Shown here: piece by piece, positions 37,906 through 51,301 of the stretch
Position numbering within the stretch: the stretch's first letter is position 1
Layout of the letters: each line of letters opens with the position of its first letter
The notes under the pieces: generated by a model
Database searches by the model: none
Told to the model about the DNA's origin: nothing
The model's input: only the letters and a program-made list of their open reading frames with translations
Position numbers and translations under genes: made by a program
Sequence record: PQ850594.1
Length of the DNA: 64,000 bases
Origin: Escherichia phage AnnaHegner_Bas87
Reading direction: 5' to 3' (one strand)

Positions 37906-39753
37906 TTAGTGAGTGTGATTCCAGTTTAACCCAATCTTACAGTCAGATGCCAGAGGGCATTCCATTTTGAGATACTCACCTGCTTTACGAACACACTCTT
38001 CAGTGAGGGTACGAAGTTTGTTAACATCGTCACGATGTACAGTGAACTGGCCTTCATCATGCATGTCAATAACCTTCGCACAACGAACACCATCACGCTC
38101 AATCCATTTATTAAGGAATAGCATTGCATACTTCATAACAATCGCCCCAGCGCTCTGTAAGAGAGTATTTAAGGCTTTATGAACCATAACCTTTCCAGTT
38201 GCATCTCTTCTCATTGTAATACGACGTCCATCCACACCGTAGATGTATCCACTTTGTGCTTTCTCTGTCATACGTTCAATAAGAATTGCAATACAAGGAT
38301 TCTCTGCTAAGAATCTTGCCCTCATGACAGCTCCTTCATCAGAGCCACCGCCTACGATGCTTCCTAACTTAGCGTCACCAGCTCCGTAGTTGAATGCGTA
38401 GATAAATGTTTTAGCATTATCACGAGTAGGAAGGCCAGCAAGTTTTTGGTTATGTGAGTGAATATCTCCTTCTAAAAGAATATCTCTGTACATAACAGCA
38501 GAAGCTAGACCGCGTTCAGCTTCTCGTTTCTTAGCCGGGTTGTTTTCTCGCTCTGCTTCAGCGAGCATCTCACGACACTCTTTAATAAGGTAGTGAGCTA
38601 GCATCCTCAGCTCAAGACCAGAGCCATCGTAACCTAAGAAGATTTCACGACCAGCAGGAACATAGAACTTATAGGCACCTACAGGTTTGTCTTTCTTGCC
38701 CGGTTTTCCCACTTCGTAGATAGTGTTAGTACCCTTTCGTACGTAACACCCATCAGGGATATGGTTGGTAATGGTGAAAGGATGGTTATGACTATCGTCT
38801 GAGGAATAGTCAGATTGAAAAAGACTGCGGCACTCGTGACCAAACAAACCGCGAGAAGGAATATTAACAACAATGCGATGTTTAAAACGAAATGTCGGAG
38901 TAGCGCAGCTATTAGCTTCGGCGGACAACTTACCATCTTTACGTTCCTTGTCGATAAGCCCGCTAATCAAACCTAGCCTGTGAGCCGCTACAACGCGTCT
39001 CTTAAGCAAACTTCCTACACCCCCTAGCTCACCCCCAAGCCCTTCTTCAAGAGTCTCCTCAAGGTTTGTAGGGGCTGTAGGCCACTTGTTTGATGTAGCC
39101 AAAGCTTTTTTGATTTCATCAAAGGTTACAGGCTTCTTCCTATTAGGGTTAAGACCTAAACCGCTGACATAGGCTTTCATATAATTGACAGTGTGATAAC
39201 GGAAGTGCTTATCCAAAAACCTTCGGATATCAGCATCTATCATCTCTGCTGTCTGTTTCTCTTTAGCGTTACCTCGAATCCAAGCAGAATACCATGCAGA
39301 GTATGTACCATACTTCTTCATAGCTTTACGAATTTCAAAAGTATTCCAAGGTTTCTTAGAATAATTCCACTCTGGAGGTATAAAACCTTCATCCATCAAG
39401 GCTTCTTTAATACGTGCATCTTTTGATGGGTCAAAATCTACATACTCAACGCAAGTAAACGCCCCACCGATATCTTCTCTTTTAAGACCAACCCTATCGC
39501 AATAGAGCTGAGGCCACTTCTGTAAAGCACCTGACTTCTTAAAAGGCTTAGCATAAGTTGAACCATCCACCCGCATTTTAGGGAGGAGAGGAATCAGTTC
39601 TTTATCAATATTGACAATAATCTCTTTGAGAAGGTGAACAAACCACCGAGCGTTTCTTCTGTTGAAGTTGACTCCATGCTTCGCTTGTTTTGAGATTATA
39701 TCAGCGACTGTCATCTCCGTTATGAAAGGTAACTTATCAGGGTTATCCATCAC
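37906..39753 (-). CDS. DNA polymerase, family A (polymerase domain)
   Basis: motif A YDGSGLELRMLAH, motif B RDNAKTFIYAFNYGAG, motif C MHDEGQF. Confidence 0.8.
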   Translation of the reverse strand: MMDNPDKLPFITEMTVADIISKQAKHGVNFNRRNARWFVHLLKEIIVNIDKELIPLLPKMRVDGSTYAKPFKKSGALQKWPQLYCDRVGLKREDIGGAFTCVEYVDFDPSKDARIKEALMDEGFIPPEWNYSKKPWNTFEIRKAMKKYGTYSAWYSAWIRGNAKEKQTAEMIDADIRRFLDKHFRYHTVNYMKAYVSGLGLNPNRKKPVTFDEIKKALATSNKWPTAPTNLEETLEEGLGGELGGVGSLLKRRVVAAHRLGLISGLIDKERKDGKLSAEANSCATPTFRFKHRIVVNIPSRGLFGHECRSLFQSDYSSDDSHNHPFTITNHIPDGCYVRKGTNTIYEVGKPGKKDKPVGAYKFYVPAGREIFLGYDGSGLELRMLAHYLIKECREMLAEAERENNPAKKREAERGLASAVMYRDILLEGDIHSHNQKLAGLPTRDNAKTFIYAFNYGAGDAKLGSIVGGGSDEGAVMRARFLAENPCIAILIERMTEKAQSGYIYGVDGRRITMRRDATGKVMVHKALNTLLQSAGAIVMKYAMLFLNKWIERDGVRCAKVIDMHDEGQFTVHRDDVNKLRTLTEECVRKAGEYLKMECPLASDCKIGLNWNHTH

Positions 39754-39766
39754 CCACTCCTTATAG

Positions 39767-40120
39767 TTATTGGTATATTAAATCTGTGAATGCTTGGTTG
39801 TCTTCAACAATATCTAAAGCTTCATATGAATCAGCCAATTCATCCACATAAAAGACTGCTGGAATATCTTCTGCTCGTTGTCTACGAGCTTCTCTCCGTT
39901 CGTTGCTGTTTCTCTGAACCTGTGCAAGTTTCATACCCCACACCTGCTCATATAACTCTGGATACTTGTCACTAACCACTACATAGTTTCGAGCTGGTTG
40001 GTTTCTATTAATCTTCGCTGTCAACTCAATAAACTGGCGAAACTCTTGAATAGAGAGGTTGTCATGAATATTATCCCACTTGAGAACGCAGTGACGTTCT
40101 AGGCGTTGAGGTACTGGCAT
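39767..40120 (-). CDS. hypothetical protein
   Basis: 117-aa ORF. Confidence 0.4.
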   Translation of the reverse strand: MPVPQRLERHCVLKWDNIHDNLSIQEFRQFIELTAKINRNQPARNYVVVSDKYPELYEQVWGMKLAQVQRNSNERREARRQRAEDIPAVFYVDELADSYEALDIVEDNQAFTDLIYQ

Positions 40121-40123
40121 AAC

Positions 40124-40393
40124 TTACTCCACTGTAGGGAATGGTTTTAGGTTGTTCATGGCTGTACGAACATCAGCACAGACTTCAGGGTCACGATAAG
40201 AGAGGAATTTACCATCCTTACCACGAATCATTACATTAGTCCGTGCTGTTTTATTAGGCAATAAAGAAATCCCTCCAATCAGGTGATTGGTAGGGTGTTG
40301 TCCTTGATTAACCTTGTAGTCATGAGTCTGAGCGTCACCATTAAAGAGATGATCACGAATTTGGATTAAGCTGATCTTCATATTATGCACCAA
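40124..40393 (-). CDS. hypothetical protein (tandem paralog A)
   Basis: shares TARTNV.(I/L)RG.DGKF(L/I)S(Y/F)RD...NLKPFP with next ORF. Confidence 0.45.
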   Translation of the reverse strand: MVHNMKISLIQIRDHLFNGDAQTHDYKVNQGQHPTNHLIGGISLLPNKTARTNVMIRGKDGKFLSYRDPEVCADVRTAMNNLKPFPTVE

Positions 40394-40634
40394 AGTTAGG
40401 GAAAGGTTTCAGATTTTCAATAGACTTAGCAATACGCTTAGGAACAATCTTATCACGGAAGGAGATGAACTTGCCATCAGGGCCACGAAGGGCTACATTA
40501 GTACGAGCTGTTGTTTTGTTAAACTGAATCATCTCAACAGAGCTTGTAACATTTTCTACAGGAAAAGTATAACTCTCAGTTGTGTTCAGAGAAGGAAGGA
40601 AATCAGTTACAGTGATATAAGTTACTTTAGACAT
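40383..40634 (-). CDS. hypothetical protein (tandem paralog B)
   Basis: see paralog A. Confidence 0.45.
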   Translation of the reverse strand: MSKVTYITVTDFLPSLNTTESYTFPVENVTSSVEMIQFNKTTARTNVALRGPDGKFISFRDKIVPKRIAKSIENLKPFPNFGA

Positions 40635-40653
40635 ATTTATTACCTTAGGTTAC

Positions 40654-40687
40654 ATAAAAGAAAAGGCCACCCGAAATGGGTAGCCTT
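40654..40687 (-). terminator. rho-independent terminator (minus strand)
   Basis: AGGCCACCC-GAAAT-GGGTAGCCT hairpin (one G-U pair) followed on minus strand by TTTTCTTTTAT. Confidence 0.45.
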
Positions 40688-40690
40688 ATA

Positions 40691-41008
40691 TTAACTTGAG
40701 CTTAAAGCTCCTTTTCGACCGCCTGCTGATTTTCCAGCACGATCTCCACTTTTGCCGCCGTTCGAGCGATTTCGAGAGACTGATTCAACACGTAAGTTAC
40801 TTGACGCATTAGAACCTCCCGACTTGATTGATCGTTTGTGTCCAACATCTTTACCTCGGACAGCAGCTTTTCCATCGCGCTTTTCAACGATGCGACGTGC
40901 ACGGTGGCGCTGAGCATCTCCGCTCTTGCTACCAACGCCGGTCTCACCCCTTGCGATTGCAGTTCTTCGTTCTTGTGCATAATCACGTTTCGCCTTATCG
41001 GTCATCAC
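40691..41008 (-). CDS. basic Gly/Lys/Arg-rich low-complexity protein (frame uncertain)
   Basis: ATG directly downstream of promoter motif; overlapping alternative frame 40702-40986 also open. Confidence 0.3.
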   Translation of the reverse strand: MMTDKAKRDYAQERRTAIARGETGVGSKSGDAQRHRARRIVEKRDGKAAVRGKDVGHKRSIKSGGSNASSNLRVESVSRNRSNGGKSGDRAGKSAGGRKGALSSS

Positions 41009-41030
41009 AACTCCTTAACATATCAGTGTA

Positions 41031-41039
41031 CACTAAGGA
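41031..41039 (-). promoter_or_regulatory. phage promoter-like motif TAATGTATA (minus strand)
   Basis: exact 9-mer ~22 nt upstream of ATG 41008. Confidence 0.4.
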
Positions 41040-41052
41040 GTATACATTATGT

Positions 41053-41790
41053 TTATGATTTTTCAGATTCCATTGCTTTAACAATAGCTTTACAGAAACC
41101 TGAACGAACAATATCGTCTGATTCACCATCTACTAGAGCGGCAAATTCAAATAACTGGTGACGGTAGATGAAATCAGTAGCCCAATCCAGACCACTCTCA
41201 CCACGCATATCATGCTGATTAGTATCTCCCATGCAGAACATCTGAGAGGTTTCACCAAGACGTGTCATGATTGAATATGCTTCATCAGGAGTAGTATTCT
41301 GGAACTCATCAACAATCACGATGGCGTCATTGAATGATCGACCACGCAGATATTCCAGAGGTACGAACTCAATGTTACCATTACCTACTTGACATTCGTA
41401 GAAACCTTTACCGTAGCGCTGAGTAATAACATCAACGATTGGCATCAGGTATGGTTCAAACTTCTCACGAAGCCCACCGGGAAGTAGTCCAAGACTGTTA
41501 CCCATACCAACAGCAGGTCGGCTTAGGATAATCTTCTCAATCTTCCCACTCTTCAGAGCATCGATCACTGTAGAAGTGATTACGAATGTCTTACCACAGC
41601 CAGCAGGAGCATCTGTGAATACAACCTGTTTGGTTTTAATTGCATCAAGCAGCTCACTCTGGAATTGGTTCTGAGGTACTACCGGCTTAGCAAGAACTAC
41701 TTCTTCAAATTCCCGCTTTCCTTTCTTGGTGACGAGAGCTTCACGACGTAATTCTCTCCGTGATGCTTTCCGAGATTCTCTACGACTCAT
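41053..41790 (-). CDS. phoH: PhoH-like ATPase
   Basis: Walker A ...DAPAGCGKTF...; 245 aa. Confidence 0.75.
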   Translation of the reverse strand: MSRRESRKASRRELRREALVTKKGKREFEEVVLAKPVVPQNQFQSELLDAIKTKQVVFTDAPAGCGKTFVITSTVIDALKSGKIEKIILSRPAVGMGNSLGLLPGGLREKFEPYLMPIVDVITQRYGKGFYECQVGNGNIEFVPLEYLRGRSFNDAIVIVDEFQNTTPDEAYSIMTRLGETSQMFCMGDTNQHDMRGESGLDWATDFIYRHQLFEFAALVDGESDDIVRSGFCKAIVKAMESEKS

Positions 41791-41968
41791 TTCCTACCTC
41801 CGTGTTCTTCATATAAGAAGCTACAGGATTTACACTCTGAGCAATGGATACCTATAACCTTAATTTCGACAAACTTCTTATTCTTCCCTTTAGTCGGGGA
41901 GCCTTTGGCAAGCTCCCGTATTACTTTCGAGTCCAAATGGAGAAGAGTTGATTCACATTTAAAACATT

Positions 41969-42289
41969 TCAGATTGATTTGTCCTTATGTAAACGGTATA
42001 CTTCAGTAGCCATACAAGCTATACGCTCGTCATGAGGAAGATGCATACCAGTGGAGCCATTCCATCCATTGAACTCTGAATCGAAGAATCCAATAGGCTC
42101 AGGATACATCTCTTGCAAGGTGGTTAAGTCATCAGCCACTTGTTGCCACTTATCGTCAGACCAGATTGGGTCATCCAACCAATAATACAAATAGGAGTGG
42201 ATAAGCATCTGTGTTCTGTGTCGTTTAATCACTTCAGCAGGACTGATTTCATTTCCGTTACCAGTCCTAAATGTATTATTGTTGATCAT
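41969..42289 (-). CDS. hypothetical protein (motif resembling NAD-ligase domain Ia)
   Basis: ...LIHSYLYYWLDDPIWSDDKWQQVADDLTTLQEMYPE... ; weak. Confidence 0.35.
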   Translation of the reverse strand: MINNNTFRTGNGNEISPAEVIKRHRTQMLIHSYLYYWLDDPIWSDDKWQQVADDLTTLQEMYPEPIGFFDSEFNGWNGSTGMHLPHDERIACMATEVYRLHKDKSI

Positions 42290-42765
42290 TCCAAAACCCT
42301 TTCTTCTAAATCATAAAAGATTTGATTTGTCCCATTATTCTCAACAAGCACTGTTCCATTATCTAACAGGGTAGCAACTTGGGAATAAGGAATGTTCTTT
42401 AACATCAGAGAGTTGGTGGTTGGCTTCTTTTTGAAGTAAGCGACAGGCTCAACGTAGAAGGAAATCCCACGACTCCCTTTGATTGGAGTACTCGAAGACA
42501 ATACCCAAATTGTTTCTGGATTGCCTACTCCTTTTTCAACACCGACCTCAACAAGAGAGTCAGCAGCGAAACCTACAGGACGCCTAGAAGAACCAAGCAA
42601 CCGAATATATCCCGGTAGTTTTGACATATTAGACCAACTGCCAGTGTTTTCATTAAACATAGGTCGTGTATTTCCATATGCCCAAACCTGATTATCACAA
42701 TCGCGGGCTATGTATTTGGTCCACTCAGGAACATCATATTCTCTTCCTTCAAAAATAGCTTTCAT
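42286..42765 (-). CDS. hypothetical protein
   Basis: 159-aa ORF. Confidence 0.4.
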   Translation of the reverse strand: MKAIFEGREYDVPEWTKYIARDCDNQVWAYGNTRPMFNENTGSWSNMSKLPGYIRLLGSSRRPVGFAADSLVEVGVEKGVGNPETIWVLSSSTPIKGSRGISFYVEPVAYFKKKPTTNSLMLKNIPYSQVATLLDNGTVLVENNGTNQIFYDLEERVLE

Positions 42766-43074
42766 TTAGATAACCTTGTGCTTGTAGGTGTTAGGTTTGT
42801 AGTAATGCAACCAGTTTATGTGTTGCTTCTGTTCAAGGTAGTGCCTGCAATCATGACAAAAAGCATGACCCAAACCTGTTTCCTCGTTCAGCTTGAAATT
42901 GATAAGAAGCTTCTTCTTTTGACAGAAGCTACATACTTTAGTGGGCTTCACGTAGTGCGTCCCATGAGATTGGGAAAAGTTTACGAAGCTCTTCATCAAC
43001 AGTTGATGCGAATAAACGCACTTCGTATTGAGCATGGTCTGACAGACGTTGACGACACAACTCTGACCAACCAA
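42766..43074 (-). CDS. Cys-rich zinc-ribbon-like protein
   Basis: CSFCQ...CHDCRH motifs; 5' end overlaps ThyX gene in another frame, start uncertain. Confidence 0.3.
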   Translation of the reverse strand: MVGQSCVVNVCQTMLNTKCVYSHQLLMKSFVNFSQSHGTHYVKPTKVCSFCQKKKLLINFKLNEETGLGHAFCHDCRHYLEQKQHINWLHYYKPNTYKHKVI

Positions 43075-43588
43075 ATAAAGACCCTGTCCACACCCACTCA
43101 GTGATCATGCCCTGAGGCAATACGAATCGAGCTTGCTCTGGAGCGATAAACTTAATCAATTCATCATACGACTCAAGAGCTGTTTCGTATGCCCGATTAA
43201 TCAGAACTAGTGCAGAGTTTTGTGCTCCTGTGGTGAGGAGATTCCCCGCACCTGCATGGAGGTCCGAAGGTCTTTCAAAAATCTCTTTAGGGATGAAGAG
43301 TTCAACTGCTCCATCTTTATACCGCCGGGACATTTCGTTCCATGAGAATCCAACTTGGTGTTTATTGAGTTGTCTAGCAATTGCAATGGGAGCCTTACAC
43401 CGAAAGGTGATTTGAGGGTGTCGAAAAGGAGTCACATGACGTTCCCGAGCTAAGAATTTAATCAACCGCTCGTCACGTTCGTTCAGATCACCATCTCGTG
43501 TCACACCAAAGGAAACCCTTGCTGCATTGACCACAGATTTGTCGGAACCCATGTGCTCTACCAGTGTTGCTTTTAAAAAATCAGACAT
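42938..43588 (-). CDS. thyX: flavin-dependent thymidylate synthase (ThyX)
   Basis: ...TPFRHPQITFR...ARQL.KH....SWNEMSRRY ThyX-like signature. Confidence 0.65.
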   Translation of the reverse strand: MSDFLKATLVEHMGSDKSVVNAARVSFGVTRDGDLNERDERLIKFLARERHVTPFRHPQITFRCKAPIAIARQLNKHQVGFSWNEMSRRYKDGAVELFIPKEIFERPSDLHAGAGNLLTTGAQNSALVLINRAYETALESYDELIKFIAPEQARFVLPQGMITEWVWTGSLFGWSELCRQRLSDHAQYEVRLFASTVDEELRKLFPISWDALREAH

Positions 43589-44048
43589 ACTTCAACTTCT
43601 CCTTGTTGTAAACTTCTTCTGCCTCTTCGCAAGAAGCAAAAGTCCCTAAATGTATATTCTTACCTTTGACGCCAATGATGGCTCGGTATCTATCACCAGA
43701 AGTTGTCTTACGAAGATACACACCCCTAGGAAGATTTCCTATCTTGCTATCAACATCATACTGCTTTCTGTTATGGCAGTTAGTGGATGGATTTACATCT
43801 CTTAGGTTATCAATCGAATCATTAAGTTTGTTCTGGTCGATGTGGTCAATTTCAAACTCAGGAAACTTTCCATGAACAAAGAACCAAGCAAGGCGACAAG
43901 CTCTGTAGCTTTTCCCTTCATACTCAATATAACGATAACCTAGAGAAGATACATATCCAGCTTGATTCCCTTTAACCCTTCGACCTTTTGTGTTCTTCCA
44001 GAAGAAGGCTCCAGTCTTAGGGTTATATTCCAAGTCATCTTGTATCAT
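43581..44048 (-). CDS. HNH-AP2 homing endonuclease
   Basis: N-terminal ...YNPKTGAFFWK...AGYV..LGYRYIEYEGKSYRACRLAWFFVHG...IDHID... plus AP2-like ...DRYRAIIGVKGKNIHLGTFASCEEAE... Confidence 0.65.
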   Translation of the reverse strand: MIQDDLEYNPKTGAFFWKNTKGRRVKGNQAGYVSSLGYRYIEYEGKSYRACRLAWFFVHGKFPEFEIDHIDQNKLNDSIDNLRDVNPSTNCHNRKQYDVDSKIGNLPRGVYLRKTTSGDRYRAIIGVKGKNIHLGTFASCEEAEEVYNKEKLKYV

Positions 44049-44055
44049 CTCTTCC

Positions 44056-44268
44056 TTAATAATAAACTTTTGGTACTACTACAATGAAACCCGCTGCTGT
44101 CATATATGCACGGTGGATTGAAATCTTCGAATCACGACCCATCTTCTTGAGGGCACGTTTAGTGCATCGTGCAGTTTTACGAGTAGCACACGTGTTAACC
44201 CTTGGATACTCCATCTCTGGATATTCAGAAACAACAGCCCAAAAATACACATCTTTTCCTTGAGTCAT
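44056..44268 (-). CDS. small protein, paralog family member 1 of 4 (C-terminal K-V/I-Y/H-Y)
   Basis: 70 aa; shared TR.EAR..K.. and C-terminal PKVYY. Confidence 0.45.
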   Translation of the reverse strand: MTQGKDVYFWAVVSEYPEMEYPRVNTCATRKTARCTKRALKKMGRDSKISIHRAYMTAAGFIVVVPKVYY

Positions 44269-44283
44269 AATAGCACCTATTCT

Positions 44284-44499
44284 TTAATAGTAAATCTTTT
44301 TATAAATCAGGTTGCTTCCACTTTCTGTTTCAATCCCTTTCTGGATTGTAATCTTAGAAGCACCGGTATTAGCAATTTTTAAAGCTCGTTTAAAGCGGCG
44401 AGCCTCTCTCCGTGTTGTGTATGAGGAGAAGCTAGGGATTGTACTATCAAAATTAAACCACTTAACTACCCAAAAAGTAATCCAAGGTTTCTTTTCCAT
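44284..44499 (-). CDS. small protein, paralog family member 2 of 4
   Basis: 71 aa; TRREARRFKRALK ... KKIYY. Confidence 0.45.
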   Translation of the reverse strand: MEKKPWITFWVVKWFNFDSTIPSFSSYTTRREARRFKRALKIANTGASKITIQKGIETESGSNLIYKKIYY

Positions 44500-44500
44500 A

Positions 44501-44776
44501 TTAAATACCTTTCAGAGCTGTATCTAAAAACGCACGGAGGTTTGATTCAGTTTGCATACCGGACAAGCTGTAGTGAGCACCACTGTTCATGTTAGGAACC
44601 ACAAAGGCTGGGATACTGCGAACACCATATTCAATGGCTCGCTCTCGACCATCACCTTCAGAGATATTTACTTCTTCAACTTCTACGTTGTAATCAGCTA
44701 CAACTTTCTTAAACACAGGAGCCATAGCTGCACATGGAGCACAGGAATTACTATAAAACTTAATTACTTTACTCAT
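44501..44776 (-). CDS. thioredoxin-fold (thioredoxin/glutaredoxin-like) protein
   Basis: CAPC active-site-like motif after beta strand (KFYSNSCAPCAAM); likely start MSKVIKF with AAGGAA RBS. Confidence 0.55.
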   Translation of the reverse strand: MSKVIKFYSNSCAPCAAMAPVFKKVVADYNVEVEEVNISEGDGRERAIEYGVRSIPAFVVPNMNSGAHYSLSGMQTESNLRAFLDTALKGI

Positions 44777-44777
44777 T

Positions 44778-44954
44778 TTATTCCTTGTTAATAAACAGAT
44801 TGATATGACGCTGGGTAGCAGGAACAACAATAAAAGATTTATACTGACCTTTTGCTAAGTCATGAGCAATCTTCTTTGTCTGACCAAGACCCATCACACA
44901 GCCACTAACGATAATGGCATGTGCTTGTAATTCTTCAGGTAGGTTTAGTTTCAC
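44778..44954 (-). CDS. unlisted small ORF (58 aa, GTG start)
   Basis: AAGGAA RBS; stop overlaps thioredoxin ATG (TAAAATG). Confidence 0.3.
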   Translation of the reverse strand: MKLNLPEELQAHAIIVSGCVMGLGQTKKIAHDLAKGQYKSFIVVPATQRHINLFINKE

Positions 44955-44966
44955 TCTTTGGATTCC

Positions 44967-45152
44967 TTATAGCATACAAAGAATAATAACAAGAGGTAGT
45001 GTTATAGCAAAATGTACCAGAACAACACTACCTAGCTTGATAGCTTTAACATCCTCTTCTGCTGGGTTTTCTTTAATTGCTAAATTTCGAGCTTTATATA
45101 TAACAGTACCAACTATTAACGACCACACGGCCCACACAATCAGTGAAATCAT
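44967..45152 (-). CDS. small membrane protein (2 TM), tandem paralog
   Basis: shared K.NP...K.IK.GS.ALV.F pattern with next ORF. Confidence 0.45.
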   Translation of the reverse strand: MISLIVWAVWSLIVGTVIYKARNLAIKENPAEEDVKAIKLGSVVLVHFAITLPLVIILCML

Positions 45153-45161
45153 ATCAAACCC

Positions 45162-45383
45162 TTATGCAGTCAACAGGTGGAGAAGGAAAGGAATGACAAC
45201 AGAGAAAACTACCAGAGCAATGCTACCATGTTTAATAGGTTTGGCATCATTTGGATTTTCTTTAAGCATCTGCTTCTGAGCCAGATAAACGATACCACCA
45301 ACAAGGATTGCCCATACAGACCATACGATTGCTGAAAACATACTCATATCCTTATAAAGAAGTTCGCCCCACCTCTTGAACAA
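45162..45383 (-). CDS. small membrane protein (2 TM), tandem paralog
   Basis: see above. Confidence 0.45.
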   Translation of the reverse strand: MFKRWGELLYKDMSMFSAIVWSVWAILVGGIVYLAQKQMLKENPNDAKPIKHGSIALVVFSVVIPFLLHLLTA

Positions 45384-45404
45384 AGAGACAGGGCGGAGGT
45401 TTGA

Positions 45405-45980
45405 TTAGTAAGACACATCACCACTGGAGTGGGACATGTTGCTCTTGACGAAGTAACAGAACTTGCCAAGACCTTCATTAATTTCTTGAAGCATACTCTG
45501 GTCCACTGGATAGGTGCACAAGTCTGAATCAAACTCATCCATCTTCTCAATGATACACATAAGAGTCATGCACATGTCGGAAAGCATACCGTCCATGTCG
45601 AGATCAGCGTTACCTTCTCGGAACCAAGCATGGCCTAAATAATTACTAGCAGTAGCATCCACTTTAACACAATGAAAGCGCATACGCTCTGCTATTCGGT
45701 CGCCTGCCTCACGAGCATAATCTTCTAGTTCATCGAACATACCATGAACACCTTGGAAACCAGCTCCAGAGACGTTCCAGTGGTAGTTCTTTGCTTTGAT
45801 GTGTAGAAGTTCAAGGTTAGCTTGCACACCACACAAGATGTGTTCTAAGCTGTTACCGCTAATCAGTTTATTCATTCCCTCAAGACGAGAGATAGAAGAG
45901 TCAGTAGTAGAGAATGGGTTGCTAGAACCCACTCGTGTTAGTTCTGGTAAGTCGAAGACATTATTATGCATTAGGTGCAT
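45405..45980 (-). CDS. Dps/ferritin-like protein
   Basis: ...KAKNYHWNVSGAGFQGVHGMFDELEDYAREAGDRIAERM... matches Dps ferroxidase region. Confidence 0.6.
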   Translation of the reverse strand: MHLMHNNVFDLPELTRVGSSNPFSTTDSSISRLEGMNKLISGNSLEHILCGVQANLELLHIKAKNYHWNVSGAGFQGVHGMFDELEDYAREAGDRIAERMRFHCVKVDATASNYLGHAWFREGNADLDMDGMLSDMCMTLMCIIEKMDEFDSDLCTYPVDQSMLQEINEGLGKFCYFVKSNMSHSSGDVSY

Positions 45981-46311
45981 CCCCTTCTAAGTTAGTTGAA
46001 TTAGCTACATTACGAGCAATGTTATCCATGACCTGCTGGGTAATAACAATGCAATTCTGTGGGTCTACAGACTTAGAACGCCCCATTTCAGGGTCATAAA
46101 CCTTAACACGCTTGGCTGTTGAGCCAGTAACTTGCAACACTTTGAGAAGATAACCTTGGTTTCCAATAGACCATGCAACAACATCACGATTCTTGATATA
46201 ACGACCAAGCATATCACGATGATAGAACTGCTGCATAACTTTAGCTTTGCTAATCTCTTCAGATGGCGGGGCCACTTTACTCAAATCTAACATAACTCTC
46301 TCCTGTTTCAT
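45964..46311 (-). CDS. hypothetical protein
   Basis: 115-aa ORF. Confidence 0.4.
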   Translation of the reverse strand: MKQERVMLDLSKVAPPSEEISKAKVMQQFYHRDMLGRYIKNRDVVAWSIGNQGYLLKVLQVTGSTAKRVKVYDPEMGRSKSVDPQNCIVITQQVMDNIARNVANSTNLEGDAPNA

Positions 46312-46330
46312 ACAATATTCTTATACTGTA

Positions 46331-46339
46331 TATACATTT
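46331..46339 (-). promoter_or_regulatory. phage promoter-like motif (AAATGTATA, minus strand)
   Basis: ~20 nt upstream of start 46311. Confidence 0.3.
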
Positions 46340-46363
46340 GAGAGTTATCATATCTACTACCAA

Positions 46364-46579
46364 CTAGTAATAAACCTTGCTGGATATGAATCCAGCACTG
46401 TTATGGATATTTTCAATCCAACGATGAATCTCCACCTTTTCAGCGATTCCTAAAGCTTTTGTAGCTTTTATAGTTTTCTTAGCAAGACGAGCCTCTTGTC
46501 TTGTGTTGAATAATTGAATACAATCACCACCAAGAGCTTTGTTAGCCCATTTAGTACGAACTGCCCATAATTTATCCAT
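46364..46579 (-). CDS. small protein, paralog family member 3 of 4
   Basis: 71 aa; TRQEARLAKK ... SKVYY. Confidence 0.45.
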   Translation of the reverse strand: MDKLWAVRTKWANKALGGDCIQLFNTRQEARLAKKTIKATKALGIAEKVEIHRWIENIHNSAGFISSKVYY

Positions 46580-46791
46580 TAGTAATGTACCTTTCCGCTG
46601 ATATAGAAACGACCTGATTTAAAGTCTTGAGCTTTGTGGATAGTGATCTTATTAATTGTGCTTTCACAACTTAACAAGAACTTCTTATGAGCGCGAGCTT
46701 CTTGACGGGTATTCCTAATACCCATTGACTCTGTACCACTGCTCCAGTGAATACGAACTACCCAACGTCTTTTCATTGTTCCAAACTCCAT
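46579..46791 (-). CDS. small protein, paralog family member 4 of 4
   Basis: 70 aa; TRQEARAHKK ... GKVHY. Confidence 0.45.
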   Translation of the reverse strand: MEFGTMKRRWVVRIHWSSGTESMGIRNTRQEARAHKKFLLSCESTINKITIHKAQDFKSGRFYISGKVHY

Positions 46792-46982
46792 TATCTGTCA
46801 ACCAATTTAGGGACAAACTGCATTACACAGACCTGACTACGAGGGAGATTTATTTCACAAGCGGCTCTTCTCGTCTCAATCTTAACGCTAGAATCTGGAC
46901 CAACGTTAGATATAAATACTCCCATAGCAAATGCCCCAACTACAAAACCAATAGCTAAGTAAGTAGCTTTTTCTTCTTTCAT
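46791..46982 (-). CDS. small membrane protein
   Basis: 63 aa with one TM segment. Confidence 0.35.
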   Translation of the reverse strand: MKEEKATYLAIGFVVGAFAMGVFISNVGPDSSVKIETRRAACEINLPRSQVCVMQFVPKLVDR

Positions 46983-46987
46983 CTTGG

Positions 46988-47521
46988 TTATACACCTTTA
47001 GATGCAACTACCCCATTGCTGCCATTGTAACGACCCTTCACTGCATAGGAATCATCACCAGCGTGAGAGTGTTCAAACATAACCATCTGACCAACACGCA
47101 TCCCAGCACGAACTCGTAAGCTGTGGTTGTGGGTAACGTTATGGAATTCAAAGGTCAGCTTACTGCTGTTAAACCCTGCATCAGCCCAACCAGCATGTAA
47201 GTGGTTCAAACCACAACGAGCCATTGAGGAGCGAAGTACAAACAGACTTGAGATGTTATCTGGAAGGTTAAACTCTTCCATTGAGTGCGCTAAGAAGAAT
47301 TGTCCCGGAGTGATGACAATACCATCTTCAGGGATTTTCACCTCTTTCCACTTGAGGTTTTCTTTAGCATCAATGTCAACAATGCCGTCAGCCTGTTCTT
47401 CAACAAGGATAGTATCACCAATACGGATATCCACACTAGCAGCGTTAACATATTTATGCTCCGCATCTAAAAAGCCATTATCAATAACACTGTGTAATTC
47501 TTGAGAACCTAAAAGACTCAT
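46988..47521 (-). CDS. dCTP deaminase / dUTPase-family enzyme
   Basis: ...NAASVDIRIGDTILV... and downstream motifs typical of dCTP deaminase. Confidence 0.6.
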   Translation of the reverse strand: MSLLGSQELHSVIDNGFLDAEHKYVNAASVDIRIGDTILVEEQADGIVDIDAKENLKWKEVKIPEDGIVITPGQFFLAHSMEEFNLPDNISSLFVLRSSMARCGLNHLHAGWADAGFNSSKLTFEFHNVTHNHSLRVRAGMRVGQMVMFEHSHAGDDSYAVKGRYNGSNGVVASKGV

Positions 47522-48966
47522 GAGTTTCTGTTTCCTTGTACAGATGATGCCAAATTGTTAATCATGTTACGAGCTGTTTCACGAGTCAGCGTAACACCTG
47601 CTAAGTTACTATCAAGTTCACCAACTAATTCACGAGCTGTTGCTCGGAGTTCTGCACCAAGTGTAGTGTTAGAATGAGCCAGACCATTACGACGACCGAC
47701 AGGTCGAGGAGTATTGTTAGCATCATTAGCTAAAGATGCAAAACCAATACGAGCAGCTTCACGAGCGGCTATAGCTGCTACCCGATCTTCCGTAGGGGTT
47801 GGCAAATCACCAACTTCTACACGTTCTATATCACTAGAACGTAGACCCTGAACAACAGAGCTAACTGTTTCCCATGAACGACGGGAGCGCTGCAAATCAC
47901 CCATAGATGGAGAAGAAGCAGGTCGAACAGTTACTCCACCTGTATCATGAGTGACGTGCCATGTACGAGTACCCATTCCAGAAGAACGGGCACTACCAAA
48001 ACTACCAGTGAAAGTATCACGAGGTGACTCTGTAGCAGGTGCTGCGAATCTTGTCTGTTGCCAAGAGTCACGTCTGTCAGTTCCCGGAGTCCAAGGCTGC
48101 GTAATTGCTTCAGCACCTATAGTGGTTAATCCGCTAGACCATTCTGTCTGTAGATTAACTTCCTCGTCCAGATAACTACGACCCCTTTCCTGAGGAATGT
48201 TTAATATAGTTTCCATCATCTTCAGGGTATAATGACGACGCTGATTCTGATATAAATTTACACCAGCCATAGGTCCAACTAAATCACTAATCAGGTGAAC
48301 TTCTGGCTCACCGAAAGCTCCCATTGCAAGGTGCATGTATTCAGTAGAACTGCTATAAACTGCAACAGTTGCTTCAGGCCACTTCTTGTGAACATACTTC
48401 ATTTCACGACTAGATACCACAGGAATGTCACGAGTGTATGACATTGCAAACAAACCTTCGTTTGACACATACAGATTACCAAGAGTCATAAACCCTTGAC
48501 AGATCATAGGAAAGCGACGGCTTAAAGTATCCATATCCAAAGGTAGATTAATCATCATCTGGATTTTAACTTGATCAATCTCAATTTCCAGAATCTCTTG
48601 GAAAGTGAAAAGCGCTTCAGCATAGGTTGTCCCGTTAACAGGCTGAATTAGTCGAGATGTAACCTGAAGCCCCTTACTTTCTGTCCAAGATAAGAAGTTG
48701 TCAAGGAATAGTGCAGCATTACCTACGTTAGCAGGGCTGTTTTCTTGACGAGTGTTCCAACGAAGCCCTCCTTGAACTAGGAAGATATCAACATCATTCG
48801 GAGTTCTATTTTGAAAGAACGTATCACGGATAGCACCACCTGCAATAACAGGATAGATGCCATCAGGGACTACGTTATCTCTGATCAAATTACGAATCAG
48901 GTCAAGCCCTACACTGAGGGCTTCTCCTTCTTGAAGGTTCAATTCAGATAGTGGAATCTTAATCAT
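47518..48966 (-). CDS. Pol-beta-superfamily nucleotidyltransferase (CCA-adding/poly(A) polymerase head-like) with low-complexity C-terminal half
   Basis: ...VIAGGAIRDTFFQNRTPNDVDIFL... (GG..RD...DxD); C-terminal ~230 aa rich in R/S/T/G/A. Confidence 0.55.
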   Translation of the reverse strand: MIKIPLSELNLQEGEALSVGLDLIRNLIRDNVVPDGIYPVIAGGAIRDTFFQNRTPNDVDIFLVQGGLRWNTRQENSPANVGNAALFLDNFLSWTESKGLQVTSRLIQPVNGTTYAEALFTFQEILEIEIDQVKIQMMINLPLDMDTLSRRFPMICQGFMTLGNLYVSNEGLFAMSYTRDIPVVSSREMKYVHKKWPEATVAVYSSSTEYMHLAMGAFGEPEVHLISDLVGPMAGVNLYQNQRRHYTLKMMETILNIPQERGRSYLDEEVNLQTEWSSGLTTIGAEAITQPWTPGTDRRDSWQQTRFAAPATESPRDTFTGSFGSARSSGMGTRTWHVTHDTGGVTVRPASSPSMGDLQRSRRSWETVSSVVQGLRSSDIERVEVGDLPTPTEDRVAAIAAREAARIGFASLANDANNTPRPVGRRNGLAHSNTTLGAELRATARELVGELDSNLAGVTLTRETARNMINNLASSVQGNRNS

Positions 48967-48968
48967 TT

Positions 48969-49517
48969 CTACATTTTCCAGTTGAGAGATGGGGGATTCT
49001 TATAATCAAATCCAGCCATTTGGCAAAGACACATGTAAACCTTAACTGTCAAGTTAACGTCTTGTTCACAATACGTGAACATGTCTTCAGTGAAAGCATC
49101 CCATGCTTCTTCCTGTTCACCATAGTCACCCTTCAGCTCTCCCAGAAATTCGCCCCATTGCTTGAGGCCATGACCGCGAGGTCCGTGTCTAGGGTCGCCT
49201 TTGGGATATTCTGGACTGTCACCAATACGGTCAGGCTTGAGGTATCGACTCAGGCACAGGGTATCAAAGACATTAAAACGAAAAGGTATCACATGAGAGT
49301 AGAATTTAAACAAAGCAGGAAGGTCAAAATCAATAATATTGTGACCTATTACTACATCAGCTTCTTTCAGTTTGTGTAGTGCTTCTTCAATTTGGTGAGG
49401 GCGATACCCCCACCGTTCTCCAGACAGTACATCAAATATCCATATACACCAGACATTCTGAATACCATCATAGAGGTTATCACCTTCAATATCAAACGCA
49501 TACAGTTTCTTTACCAC
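48969..49517 (-). CDS. DEDD-family 3'-5' exonuclease (DnaQ-like)
   Basis: Exo I YAFDIEGD, Exo [16 protein letters not shown], Exo III YCEQDV. Confidence 0.6.
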
Positions 49518-51301
49518 GGACGTGCCTCCCCTTCTTGTGAAAGTAAGGAAGCTGCATCTTCTCCGTTGGTGACTGTAAACGGATTATCTTCATCAACTTC
49601 ATGATCTTCTCGTTCCACAAGACGACCTGTTTCGTTAATGTATTTGGTATAGCAAACCCCTGTCTGTCCATAGTTACGCTCTTTGAGCAGACGTATGATT
49701 GACAAGTTTTTACCTAACCCATCCGCTTGTTTATTACGTTCGAAACCGATAATACATTGACACCAGCGCATTAATGAACGTGAGCCAGTAAACTGTACTT
49801 CTTTAACCTGACCACCTTCTTCGTGAGGGGCACCGCCCGCCGGAGCATTCAAGTGAGATAACACAAAAGCAGTGAAGTCTAATTCCTTACACATACCAGC
49901 AAGCTCTGAAGCAATCTTACTGATTTCTGTATTCACTTCGGATGGAGTTAAGTGAGATACCAATGCAGTGATGTTATCAAGAATGATAAATTTACACTGA
50001 TTCTCAACTACCCAAAAGCGAATACACTGCTTAATGTCTTCCCATTCGTTCTGCCCAAAGTTGTCATACAAGAAAAACTTATCAGCGTATCGAAGTGCTT
50101 CATCTCGTAGCTGGCTTTCTTCGTACTCAACATCTGGTCGGTGGAAAGGTACAGATGCTGACTTACCTGCAATGTTCTTAACAGACATGCCTACCTTCTC
50201 TTCCAAGAAGAAGCCACCACCATTAAAACCATGCTCAAGGCAAAGCCATGCTACCAGTTCGTGTGCGATTAAGGTTTTACCTGAACCAACACCACCGCCG
50301 ATTGCAACCATCTCTCCCCAACGAATACCGAAAGTCATGTCGTTAAGAGTTTTCCACGGATAAGGGATACCCCACTCCGCTTTCTTCAGAGCATCTTCAA
50401 GGCAATCAAAAACTGTAACAGCGCCGGCAGGAGATTCCCGCTTAGCTGAATATTTCAGATTGTTGAAAAGCTCTTGACCTCTCCCTGCAAGTAACATGTC
50501 GTTTGCATCTTTGATTTCCTTTTCTTGTCCGTTATAAGTGAACGTACCTTTTGGAATTCTTGCAAACTTGACATGTGGGTACAGAGAACGACCTTTAGTC
50601 AATGCAATCTCTCCTGCATCATCATTGTCCATGCAGAGTACAATCTCCTCGAAACCATTAATAAAATCACGATTTCTTGACAACACAGAAGAGATTGAAC
50701 CTGCACCGAACGGAAGAGAGACACAAGCAGGTTTGATATTAGTTGCGTTTGTGAACGCAGTAAGTACGTGGAATCCAGACATACAAGAGAGTGGGTCTTC
50801 GAAGATGAAGAGCTTCTTATTGTAAACATCGCCACGTTGTGCTTGAGCCATACCAAATAAGTCGGCTTCTTTCACATTACCTACATAATAGAACTTCTTG
50901 CTGTCTAGAAGTTTTACTTCATATCCAACAATATTCCCATCACGTTCACGAGGGAAGAAGTAGCTGTCAGGAGTTTGACCATCTGTTTGGCTTAAACCGA
51001 TACGGCATCCATAACGTTCAGATACAGCTTTAGGAATTAAGCGACGAGTCAACTCTCCCTGAGGAAGCTCTAAGCAATCGTCTAAGACTTCTCGGAGTTC
51101 TTCAGGGGACAGCTCTTTCTTTTCATTAGGAGTGGGCGTCGTTCCTTTCTCGAAGATTTCATACGCACCACATCTGTTACATGAACCCCACTCCTCACCG
51201 GACTCTTCATTTCGGAAGAGAATCATGTGATTGCGGGTCTTATCACGACCATGAGAGATACACTCTTTACAGCCTGTGTCTCCCAAAATGATCTTTGACA
51301 T
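49511..51301 (-). CDS. primase-helicase (T7 gp4-like)
   Basis: N-terminal Cys4 zinc ribbon, central primase region, C-terminal DnaB-like helicase with Walker [10 protein letters not shown]. Confidence 0.8.

Follow-up and report, generated by a model that had tools for sequence, protein, structure and literature searches.

In family A DNA polymerases, to our knowledge, the proofreading domain is nearly always part of the polymerase polypeptide itself. Phage T7 gene 5, whose product (gp5) is one 704-aa chain, sits just after the primase-helicase gene. E. coli Pol III divides polymerase and proofreading exonuclease between two polypeptides that act as one enzyme (alpha-epsilon; DnaE and DnaQ). 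However, this polymerase belongs to family C rather than A and its exonuclease to the DEDDh rather than the DEDDy type, and it shares no homology with the polymerase of Escherichia phage AnnaHegner_Bas87 studied here.

A division of a T7-like family A polymerase has been described for cyanophage S-SBP1, in which the exonuclease and polymerase domains are encoded by two genes (Czernecki et al., NAR 2023, PMC10201439). AlphaFold2 predicts that the two S-SBP1 proteins still associate, in a complex reported to superpose on the unsplit enzyme of Syn5 (PMC10201439). A split was noted in 2012 for the LUZ24 group, with phiEco32 organised alike (PMC3517423, citing 2008 work), and in 2023 for all Kuravirus-like phages (PMC9965538). 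In Bas88 the small gene is already annotated as 'DNA polymerase exonuclease subunit'. For this phage group, the arrangement is thus on record both in annotations and in print, and what we report for AnnaHegner_Bas87 confirms existing knowledge.

The window analysed here comprises 64,000 nucleotides of AnnaHegner_Bas87 (PQ850594.1). Its 11.6-kb region spanning the two genes, positions 37906 to 49517, is 94–96% identical at the DNA level to known Kuravirus phages. Gene order is identical in the phiEco32-like phages (Kuravirus, Gordonclarkvirinae) ECBP2, EK010, 101114UKE3, IME267, Bas88 and YF01, and the exonuclease protein of EK010 is 100% identical to that of AnnaHegner_Bas87. An HNH endonuclease ORF beside thyX (43581–44048) is absent from the named features of Bas88; otherwise these relatives show no substantive difference from the window.

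Organization of the locus

The features on which the analysis is based are listed by position; all lie on the minus strand.

37906..39750 (-), predicted polymerase subunit, 614 aa, T7 gp5-like DNA polymerase of family A that comprises only thumb, palm and fingers
39767..48966 (-), intervening block of ~25 same-strand genes (ORF list, Pfam, PHROG, annotations of Bas88 and SU7)
40663..40687 (-), terminator-like hairpin between the two genes, 10-bp stem and T run (consensus scan, pattern match only)
44501..44776 (-), phage-encoded thioredoxin, 91 aa, CAPC motif (Pfam Thioredoxin, E 4e-12; PHROG 22)
45365..45395 (-), terminator-like hairpin between the two genes, 13-bp stem (consensus scan, pattern match only)
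48969..49517 (-), predicted exonuclease subunit, 182 aa, DEDDy 3'-5' exonuclease that stands alone and is homologous to the T7 gp5 N-terminal domain
49511..51301 (-), T7 gp4-like primase-helicase (Pfam DnaB_C, E 2.8e-10)

The initial annotation had placed the exonuclease next to the primase-helicase and about 9 kb away from the polymerase. Indeed, the GTG start codon of the exonuclease gene, which is preceded by a GGGGAGG ribosome-binding site, overlaps the stop codon of the primase-helicase gene (GTGGTAA), and the distance from the end of the exonuclease gene to the start of the polymerase gene measures 9.2 kb. Because of the start/stop overlap, exonuclease and primase-helicase are probably translationally coupled. 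The primase-helicase additionally gave a weak match to Toprim_2 (17.6 bits, under the Pfam cutoff of 22.1) and ends in an acidic C-terminal tail with Trp as last residue.

The genes between exonuclease and polymerase encode, besides thioredoxin and the HNH endonuclease, PhoH, a stand-alone Nlig-Ia domain, ThyX, a DNA-binding protein, a dCTP deaminase and a 482-aa nucleotidyltransferase. At the place corresponding to the hairpin at 40663..40687, the annotation of SU7 has a terminator. Given the two terminator-like hairpins in this interval, the two proteins may differ in amount or in timing of synthesis. Apart from the exonuclease, the replication module showed no domain of the proofreading type.

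The longest ORF of the polymerase gene (37906–39753, minus strand) begins with GTG. However, the ATG at 39750, which has an AAGGAG ribosome-binding site 6 bases upstream, is the likely start; it gives a protein of 614 aa and matches the annotation in relatives.

Exonuclease and polymerase compared with T7 gp5

All three motifs that the initial annotation had assigned to a separate 182-aa DEDD exonuclease at 48969–49517 are present: Exo I as DIE (residues 9–11; D9, E11), Exo II as NIIDFD (residues 60–65; N60, D65) and Exo III as YCEQD (residues 149–153; Y149, D153). The catalytic residues D9, E11, N60, D65, Y149 and D153, and H116 as well, are invariant across 16 exonuclease homologues, and in the alignment with T7 gp5 the residues D9, E11, D65, H116, Y149 and D153 correspond to D5, E7, D65, H123, Y170 and D174. 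In BLASTP the exonuclease matched residues 5–178 of T7 gp5 (E 4e-15), while the Pfam family PF01612 (DNA_pol_A_exo1) was passed marginally with 24.2 bits at a cutoff of 23.6. Strong matches were obtained with two PHROGs bearing the name 'DNA polymerase exonuclease subunit', PHROG 403 (E 3e-37) and PHROG 38876 (E 3e-67). The only solved structures matching the exonuclease by sequence are T7 DNA polymerase chains. A DnaQ/epsilon-like DEDDh (RNase_T) identity was rejected: Exo III reads Y-x3-D instead of H-x4-D, and the Pfam search, taken to E 0.01, gave no RNase_T/DnaQ match.

The polymerase, likewise, fits its earlier description as a family A enzyme with motifs A, B and C, with a length of 614 aa from the likely ATG. 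DNA_pol_A (Pfam) covers residues 363–612 (E 3.7e-24), and BLASTP aligned the protein with residues 283–704 of T7 gp5 (E 1e-38). Motif A is represented by D375 (aligned with T7 D475), motif B by R443, K447 and Y451 (T7 R518, K522 and Y526) and motif C by D565 and E566 (T7 D654 and E655); E380, H431, Y455 and the C-terminal H614, which aligns with T7 H704, are further catalytic residues conserved with T7. Y451 occupies the third conserved position of motif B, at which Tyr is listed for the T7-like cluster (PMC10201439).

That the N-terminal part of the polymerase lacks Exo motifs was likewise corroborated. Neither an exonuclease family of Pfam nor a profile built from the 16 stand-alone exonuclease sequences, run with all HMMER filters off at E up to 100, found an exonuclease domain in the polymerase; the same profile recovered residues 2–191 of T7 gp5 with E 3e-34. 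Instead, the N-terminus of the polymerase aligns with the T7 thumb region, its first residue falling at about T7 residue 203. Compared with solved structures, the first 360 residues gave no sequence match at E up to 0.01, and the assignment of this part as T7-like is based on the global alignment and on the structural model described below. The exonuclease domain that a polymerase of the T7 gp5 type has on the same polypeptide is thus encoded here by a separate gene 9.2 kb upstream.

Placed end to end, exonuclease and polymerase are collinear with all of T7 gp5, with 35% identity over 618 aligned columns, and all 16 T7 functional residues that were checked are conserved in the joined sequence, including the catalytic residues, the Tyr of motif B and the C-terminal His. 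On PHROG 17, a single polymerase profile, the exonuclease covers positions 670–826 and the polymerase positions 837–1233. The last residue of the exonuclease and the first of the polymerase flank T7 residues ~195–205; this alignment puts the break in the linker that joins the exonuclease domain to the thumb. MAFFT alignments that lacked fused or paired guide rows were left out, as exonuclease homologues were misplaced in them and query identity was 23–37%. Relative to T7, the polymerase contains three insertions, at about residues 140–238, 315–363 and 395–418.

An AlphaFold2 model of the direct concatenation reached a pLDDT of 90.7 and a pTM of 0.85, values that have to be read with a bias of the model towards T7-like docking, since the input was covalently joined, fused homologues were present in the alignment and T7 polymerase structures were part of the AlphaFold2 training. 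The pLDDT dropped below 50 only at residues 180–184, i.e. at the artificial junction. The best 27 matches of the model in the PDB were T7 DNA polymerase chains throughout (target-normalised TM-scores 0.69–0.79), and the joined sequence is accordingly predicted to resemble T7 gp5 in fold and domain arrangement. The region aligned to T7 residues 258–337, where T7 has its thioredoxin-binding loop, is shorter than in T7 and was modelled as an ordered sub-domain.

Split and fused genes among relatives

At the DNA level, the same split arrangement was matched in 98 phage records. Split relatives also comprised 12 viral contigs (loci L004–L015), whose exonucleases are 42–95% identical. In 12 of the 12 the stand-alone exonuclease gene directly follows the primase-helicase gene, and in every one that is long enough the polymerase gene is found 6.8–9.6 kb downstream on the same strand. 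These longer contigs (e.g. L004–L008, L010, L013 and L015) thus combine a stand-alone exonuclease with a polymerase lacking the exonuclease domain. Close homologues of the exonuclease are stand-alone throughout (36/36), and at least 106 polymerase homologues, among the matches listed and down to ~36% identity, measure 437–618 aa, leaving no room for an exonuclease domain.

Most of 68 more distant contigs have one fused open frame, typically of 574–591 aa, at the exonuclease position, and this fused gene adjoins the primase-helicase gene in nearly all fused loci in which the upstream region is present. The N-terminal domains of these fused T7-like polymerases, encoded at the same genomic position, are the nearest relatives of the exonuclease outside the split group.

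A split also occurs in the LUZ24-like Pseudomonas phages (Bruynoghevirus: LUZ24, PaP3, tf and TL), whose polymerases are ~41% identical to that of AnnaHegner_Bas87 over the full length and lack the exonuclease domain. In phage TL, the primase/helicase gene is followed by the 3'-5' exonuclease gene, 1.9 kb of small genes and the polymerase gene; the gap is thus far smaller than the 9.2 kb of AnnaHegner_Bas87, and an endonuclease or intron divides the polymerase gene once more in both TL and LUZ24. Across relatives, the distance between exonuclease and polymerase genes spans 1.9–9.6 kb, so that those examined range from a fused gene via a gap of 1.9 kb to gaps of 6.8–9.6 kb. In S-SBP1, by contrast, the two genes are adjacent and overlapping as a result of a recent frameshift, whereas 9.2 kb and ~25 genes separate them in AnnaHegner_Bas87. 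This gap, and the fact that the split is common to far more divergent phages, make it probable that the AnnaHegner_Bas87-type split is older than, and separate from, the S-SBP1 event.

A probable two-subunit polymerase and its alternatives

The initial annotation had left two options, a split DNA polymerase with a trans-acting proofreading subunit or an independent DnaQ-like nuclease. The former is favoured by homology, collinearity with T7 gp5, the break at a domain boundary, gene order and modelling, whereas the latter lost ground with the DEDDy-type Exo III and the missing RNase_T/DnaQ match. From sequence comparison and modelling we infer, with a probability of roughly 78%, that exonuclease and polymerase are the halves of one T7 gp5-type polymerase which was split by gene fission and acts as a two-subunit proofreading enzyme. 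The gene of a T7 gp5-type replicative polymerase would have undergone fission at the exonuclease-thumb linker. The exonuclease half would have kept its ancestral place right after the primase-helicase gene, while the polymerase half would have moved 9.2 kb downstream, behind nucleotide-metabolism and small genes. The 182-aa exonuclease is envisaged to bind the 614-aa polymerase non-covalently through an interface equivalent to the inter-domain interface of T7 gp5, and the rebuilt two-subunit enzyme would polymerise and proofread within a T7-like replisome. Physical association and proofreading activity are inferred, and any role of thioredoxin would be hypothetical. In the searchable literature, split phage family A polymerases are covered by genomic and modelling papers only, and biochemical evidence of binding or joint proofreading was not found there.

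Proofreading could also be transient, the exonuclease editing 3' ends released by the polymerase after misincorporation without a stable complex of the two. With 9.2 kb and two terminator-like hairpins between the genes, a 1:1 ratio of the proteins is not guaranteed, as would suit such a mode. However, the split coincides exactly with the domain linker, the joined sequence yields a confident model of a compact, T7-like enzyme, and the exonuclease domain is reportedly needed for the stability of family A polymerases (PMC10201439); we therefore regard transient editing as unlikely. Slightly less likely still is that the 182-aa protein is an independent nuclease that serves, for example, in recombination, in the processing of ends or in breaking down host DNA, with a polymerase that does not proofread at all. 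Stand-alone DEDD nucleases with other roles are known, and the exonuclease gene is co-transcribed with the primase-helicase gene rather than with the polymerase gene. Yet, outside the split group, the exonuclease is most closely related to the N-terminal domains of fused T7-like polymerases encoded at this position, it is of the DEDDy type with T7 polymerase chains as its only solved sequence relatives, and the replication module revealed no other domain that could proofread. Moreover, the exonuclease is accompanied by an exonuclease-less polymerase in the sufficiently long split contigs and in phage TL.

It is hardly credible that the split is an artefact, whether through errors in sequencing or assembly, through a pseudogene, or because an intein, intron or ribosomal frameshift rejoins the halves, even though homing endonucleases or introns do at times interrupt the polymerase genes of related phages. 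The arrangement recurs in the 98 phage records, in metagenomic contigs and in another phage genus; ~25 intact genes separate the halves, and both have a start codon and a ribosome-binding site of their own. These comparative data rule out an assembly artefact or pseudogene. Protein trans-splicing by a split intein was rejected as well, as Pfam shows no intein or Hint domain and exonuclease and polymerase together cover T7 gp5 without extra residues where they meet.

If the two-subunit reading holds, the natural separation provides a useful system for studies of the exonuclease-polymerase interface, and it might be used for engineering polymerases with switchable proofreading and for tracing gene fission in phage replication modules. 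More speculatively, and with low confidence, placement of the halves in different transcription units may set the ratio or timing of exonuclease and polymerase and thereby adjust proofreading in the course of infection, or the exonuclease may have kept its place beside the primase-helicase because of an additional function as replisome adaptor; neither idea is raised in the papers found on this phage group. Hypothetically, and by analogy with host thioredoxin for T7 gp5, the thioredoxin encoded by the phage itself might be a processivity partner of the polymerase, as has been suggested for the related phage Privateer (PMC7881722).

Two separate genes collinear with T7 gp5

The initial annotation had placed a family A DNA polymerase and a DEDD exonuclease in separate genes, the latter adjoining the primase-helicase gene. 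Both open reading frames were found exactly as described:

49511-51301, minus strand: primase-helicase gene, stop codon overlapped by the exonuclease start
48969-49517, minus strand: exonuclease, 182 aa, GTG start
37906-39753, minus strand: polymerase open reading frame, opening with GTG

The exonuclease start and the primase-helicase stop share the sequence GTGGTAA, which is preceded by a GGGGAGG ribosome-binding site. In the polymerase frame, an ATG at 39750 is located six bases past an AAGGAG ribosome-binding site, and translation from this codon yields 614 aa, as in the annotations of relatives. Pfam assigned DNA_pol_A to residues 363-612 (E 3.7e-24) and detected no exonuclease family in the polymerase. 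Initially, no exonuclease motifs had been found in its N-terminal region, and this was confirmed using a profile of 16 stand-alone exonucleases, run at E up to 100 with every HMMER filter disabled: this profile recovered residues 2-191 of gp5, the 704-aa single-chain polymerase of phage T7 (E 3e-34), and no exonuclease domain hidden in the window polymerase.

The exonuclease barely passed the Pfam cutoff for DNA_pol_A_exo1 (24.2 versus 23.6 bits). Far stronger matches were obtained with PHROG 403 (E 3e-37) and PHROG 38876 (E 3e-67), both named "DNA polymerase exonuclease subunit", as is the gene in the record of the close phiEco32-like relative Bas88. Its Exo III motif, YCEQD, marks it as DEDDy, the type seen in family A polymerases, rather than DEDDh, the type of DnaQ, and T7 polymerase chains are its only relatives of solved structure detectable by sequence. 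The DnaQ-like nuclease initially considered as one of two readings is hence not supported.

In pairwise comparisons with T7 gp5 (NC_001604), the exonuclease matched residues 5-178 at E 4e-15, and the polymerase matched residues 283-704 at E 1e-38. When joined end to end, the two proteins are collinear with all 704 gp5 residues (35% identity, global alignment) and both active sites are intact: exonuclease residues D9, E11, D65, H116, Y149 and D153 match T7 D5, E7, D65, H123, Y170 and D174, while polymerase residues D375, E380, H431, R443, K447, Y451, Y455, D565, E566 and H614 match T7 D475, E480, H506, R518, K522, Y526, Y530, D654, E655 and the C-terminal H704. The last residue of the exonuclease and the first of the polymerase flank T7 residues about 195-205; in the T7 structure, this stretch links the exonuclease domain (about 1-187) to the thumb. 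Likewise, the exonuclease occupies positions 670-826 and the polymerase positions 837-1233 of the PHROG 17 polymerase profile. Taken together, the alignments, the break position, the PHROG 17 tiling and the DEDDy type indicate at the sequence level that the pair is a T7-type polymerase split at a domain boundary, in agreement with the other initial reading.

Split and fused polymerases in relatives

This arrangement is already on record for phiEco32-like and Kuravirus-like phages. According to PMC3517423 (2012), every LUZ24-group phage encodes its polymerase and its 3'-exonuclease in different genes, and the same paper mentions a report by Savalia et al. 2008 of a similar organisation in phiEco32. 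All Kuravirus-like phages have the two genes apart, as do 7-11, Privateer, Vp_R1 and BUCT695 (PMC9965538, 2023). A split of the same kind occurs in S-SBP1, whose genes, however, are adjacent and of recent frameshift origin (NAR 2023, PMC10201439).

In a DNA-level search, 98 phage records matched the 11.6-kb region, the best being phiEco32-like E. coli podophages (Kuravirus/Gordonclarkvirinae; ECBP2, 101114UKE3, IME267, EK010 and others) with 94-96% identity and 90-98% query cover; the EK010 exonuclease is 100% identical to that of the window. All 36 close exonuclease homologues stand alone (105-208 aa, mostly 163-193 aa). The first 106 polymerase homologues listed (identity down to about 36%) comprise 437-618 aa, too short for an exonuclease domain; one of them is the "DNA polymerase part II" found in LUZ24-like Pseudomonas phages (41% identity). 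When 1.84 billion representative proteins were searched with a profile, 4,665 exonuclease relatives were retrieved; of the best 150, 47 stand alone (at most 235 aa) and 79 have at least 550 aa with the domain at the N-terminus.

Gene order was compared in 80 viral contigs. In the 12 whose exonuclease is most similar (42-95% identity), the stand-alone gene abuts the primase-helicase gene and, wherever the contig is long enough, a polymerase on the same strand follows 6.8-9.6 kb downstream. Of the remaining 68 contigs (at most 43% identity), most carry one fused exonuclease-polymerase frame, typically of 574-591 aa, right after the primase-helicase gene; in a few, the frame is interrupted or cut by the contig end. 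In Pseudomonas phage TL (Bruynoghevirus), primase/helicase and 3'-5' exonuclease are followed by seven small genes (1.9 kb) and polymerase part II. The simplest history would be a T7-like gp4-gp5 gene pair of which gene 5 was split, the exonuclease half keeping its place and the gap ahead of the polymerase half being filled later with other genes.

Several relatives show a second break in the polymerase gene, which is intact in the window. In phage SU7 (L002 3001-5452), a homing endonuclease separates polymerase pieces of 570 and 51 aa; in TL (L084 11411-13717), endonuclease VII lies between parts II and III; other relatives (P0050-P0053) have products of about 450 aa ending near motif B.

Structure model and proposed working

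AlphaFold2 was run on the directly concatenated halves with a 49-sequence alignment including fused relatives. The model is confident (mean pLDDT 90.7, pTM 0.85), with pLDDT below 50 only at residues 180-184, the artificial junction. Foldseek against the PDB returned T7 DNA polymerase chains as all top 27 matches (target-normalised TM-scores 0.69-0.79), followed by Klenow-type and Bst-type enzymes. The model supports a T7-like arrangement of the halves, towards which it is biased by the covalently joined chain, the fused homologues in the alignment and the presence of T7 polymerase in the AlphaFold2 training. Compared to gp5, the polymerase has three insertions modelled with high confidence (residues about 140-238, 315-363 and 395-418), one of which is a beta-rich segment directly ahead of motif A.

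Exonuclease and primase-helicase are probably synthesised together, and the exonuclease probably binds the polymerase non-covalently via the ancestral inter-domain interface; the resulting two-subunit enzyme would replicate and proofread within a T7-like replisome. The analysis shows homology, collinearity, a break at the domain linker, intact active sites, a conserved gene order and a confident T7-like model, from which we infer binding, proofreading activity and stoichiometry. Indirect support comes from Czernecki et al. (PMC10201439), who report for a split cyanophage enzyme an AlphaFold2 complex that superposes on an unsplit relative, and who note that the stability of family A polymerases depends on the exonuclease domain. 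Proofreading in trans through transient contacts and an independent role for the nuclease are both less likely than the two-subunit enzyme. Artefact, intein and frameshift were each excluded as the source of the split.

The C-terminus of the primase-helicase is an acidic tail whose last residue is Trp (window 49511-49600, minus strand; ...EGEARPW, 11 preceding protein letters not shown). It resembles the gp5-binding tail of T7 gp4, likewise acidic and ending in Phe.

Genes between the halves

All genes between exonuclease and polymerase lie on the same strand and include a dCTP deaminase, a DNA-binding protein, PhoH, many small frames and the following features:

47518-48966, minus strand: 482-aa protein, PHROG 12715 'nucleotidyltransferase', starting two bases past the exonuclease stop codon
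46579-46791, 46364-46579, 44284-44499 and 44056-44268, all minus strand: four of the small frames, paralogous and each about 70 aa long (PHROG 4939, a family of unknown function)
45395-45365, minus strand: terminator-like hairpin (pattern match only)
44501-44776, minus strand: phage-encoded thioredoxin, 91 aa, CAPC motif
43581-44048, minus strand: HNH_3 endonuclease frame, 155 aa, overlapping the thyX start
42938-43588, minus strand: thyX (ThyX)
41969-42289, minus strand: Nlig-Ia-only protein, 106 aa (Pfam E 1e-33)
40687-40663, minus strand: terminator-like hairpin (pattern match only); SU7 annotates a terminator here

The two hairpins suggest that a shared transcript for both halves is not obligatory. 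While T7 borrows host thioredoxin as processivity factor, this phage encodes its own, which may act likewise, an idea raised for the related phage Privateer (PMC7881722); the region corresponding to the gp5 thioredoxin-binding loop is shorter in the window polymerase. The HNH_3 frame looks like a mobile homing-endonuclease insertion, since Bas88 has no annotated feature of that name at the corresponding position. NAD-dependent ligase binds NAD+ through its N-terminal domain, Nlig-Ia, and at 106 aa the Nlig-Ia-only protein is far too short for the 'DNA ligase' of relatives' annotations. The 482-aa protein had no Pfam match, and its Ser/Thr/Arg/Gly-rich C-terminal half looks disordered. ARAGORN found no tRNA or tmRNA genes in window 1-64000. 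Minus-strand genes extend from about 30 kb up to the window end, and the sign of the GC skew (window 1-64000) flips near 30 kb, marking the point at which gene orientation changes from the plus to the minus strand. The paralogues of about 70 aa form two tandem pairs with a common TRxEAR...K...KI.I motif and a C-terminal K[VI][YH]Y.
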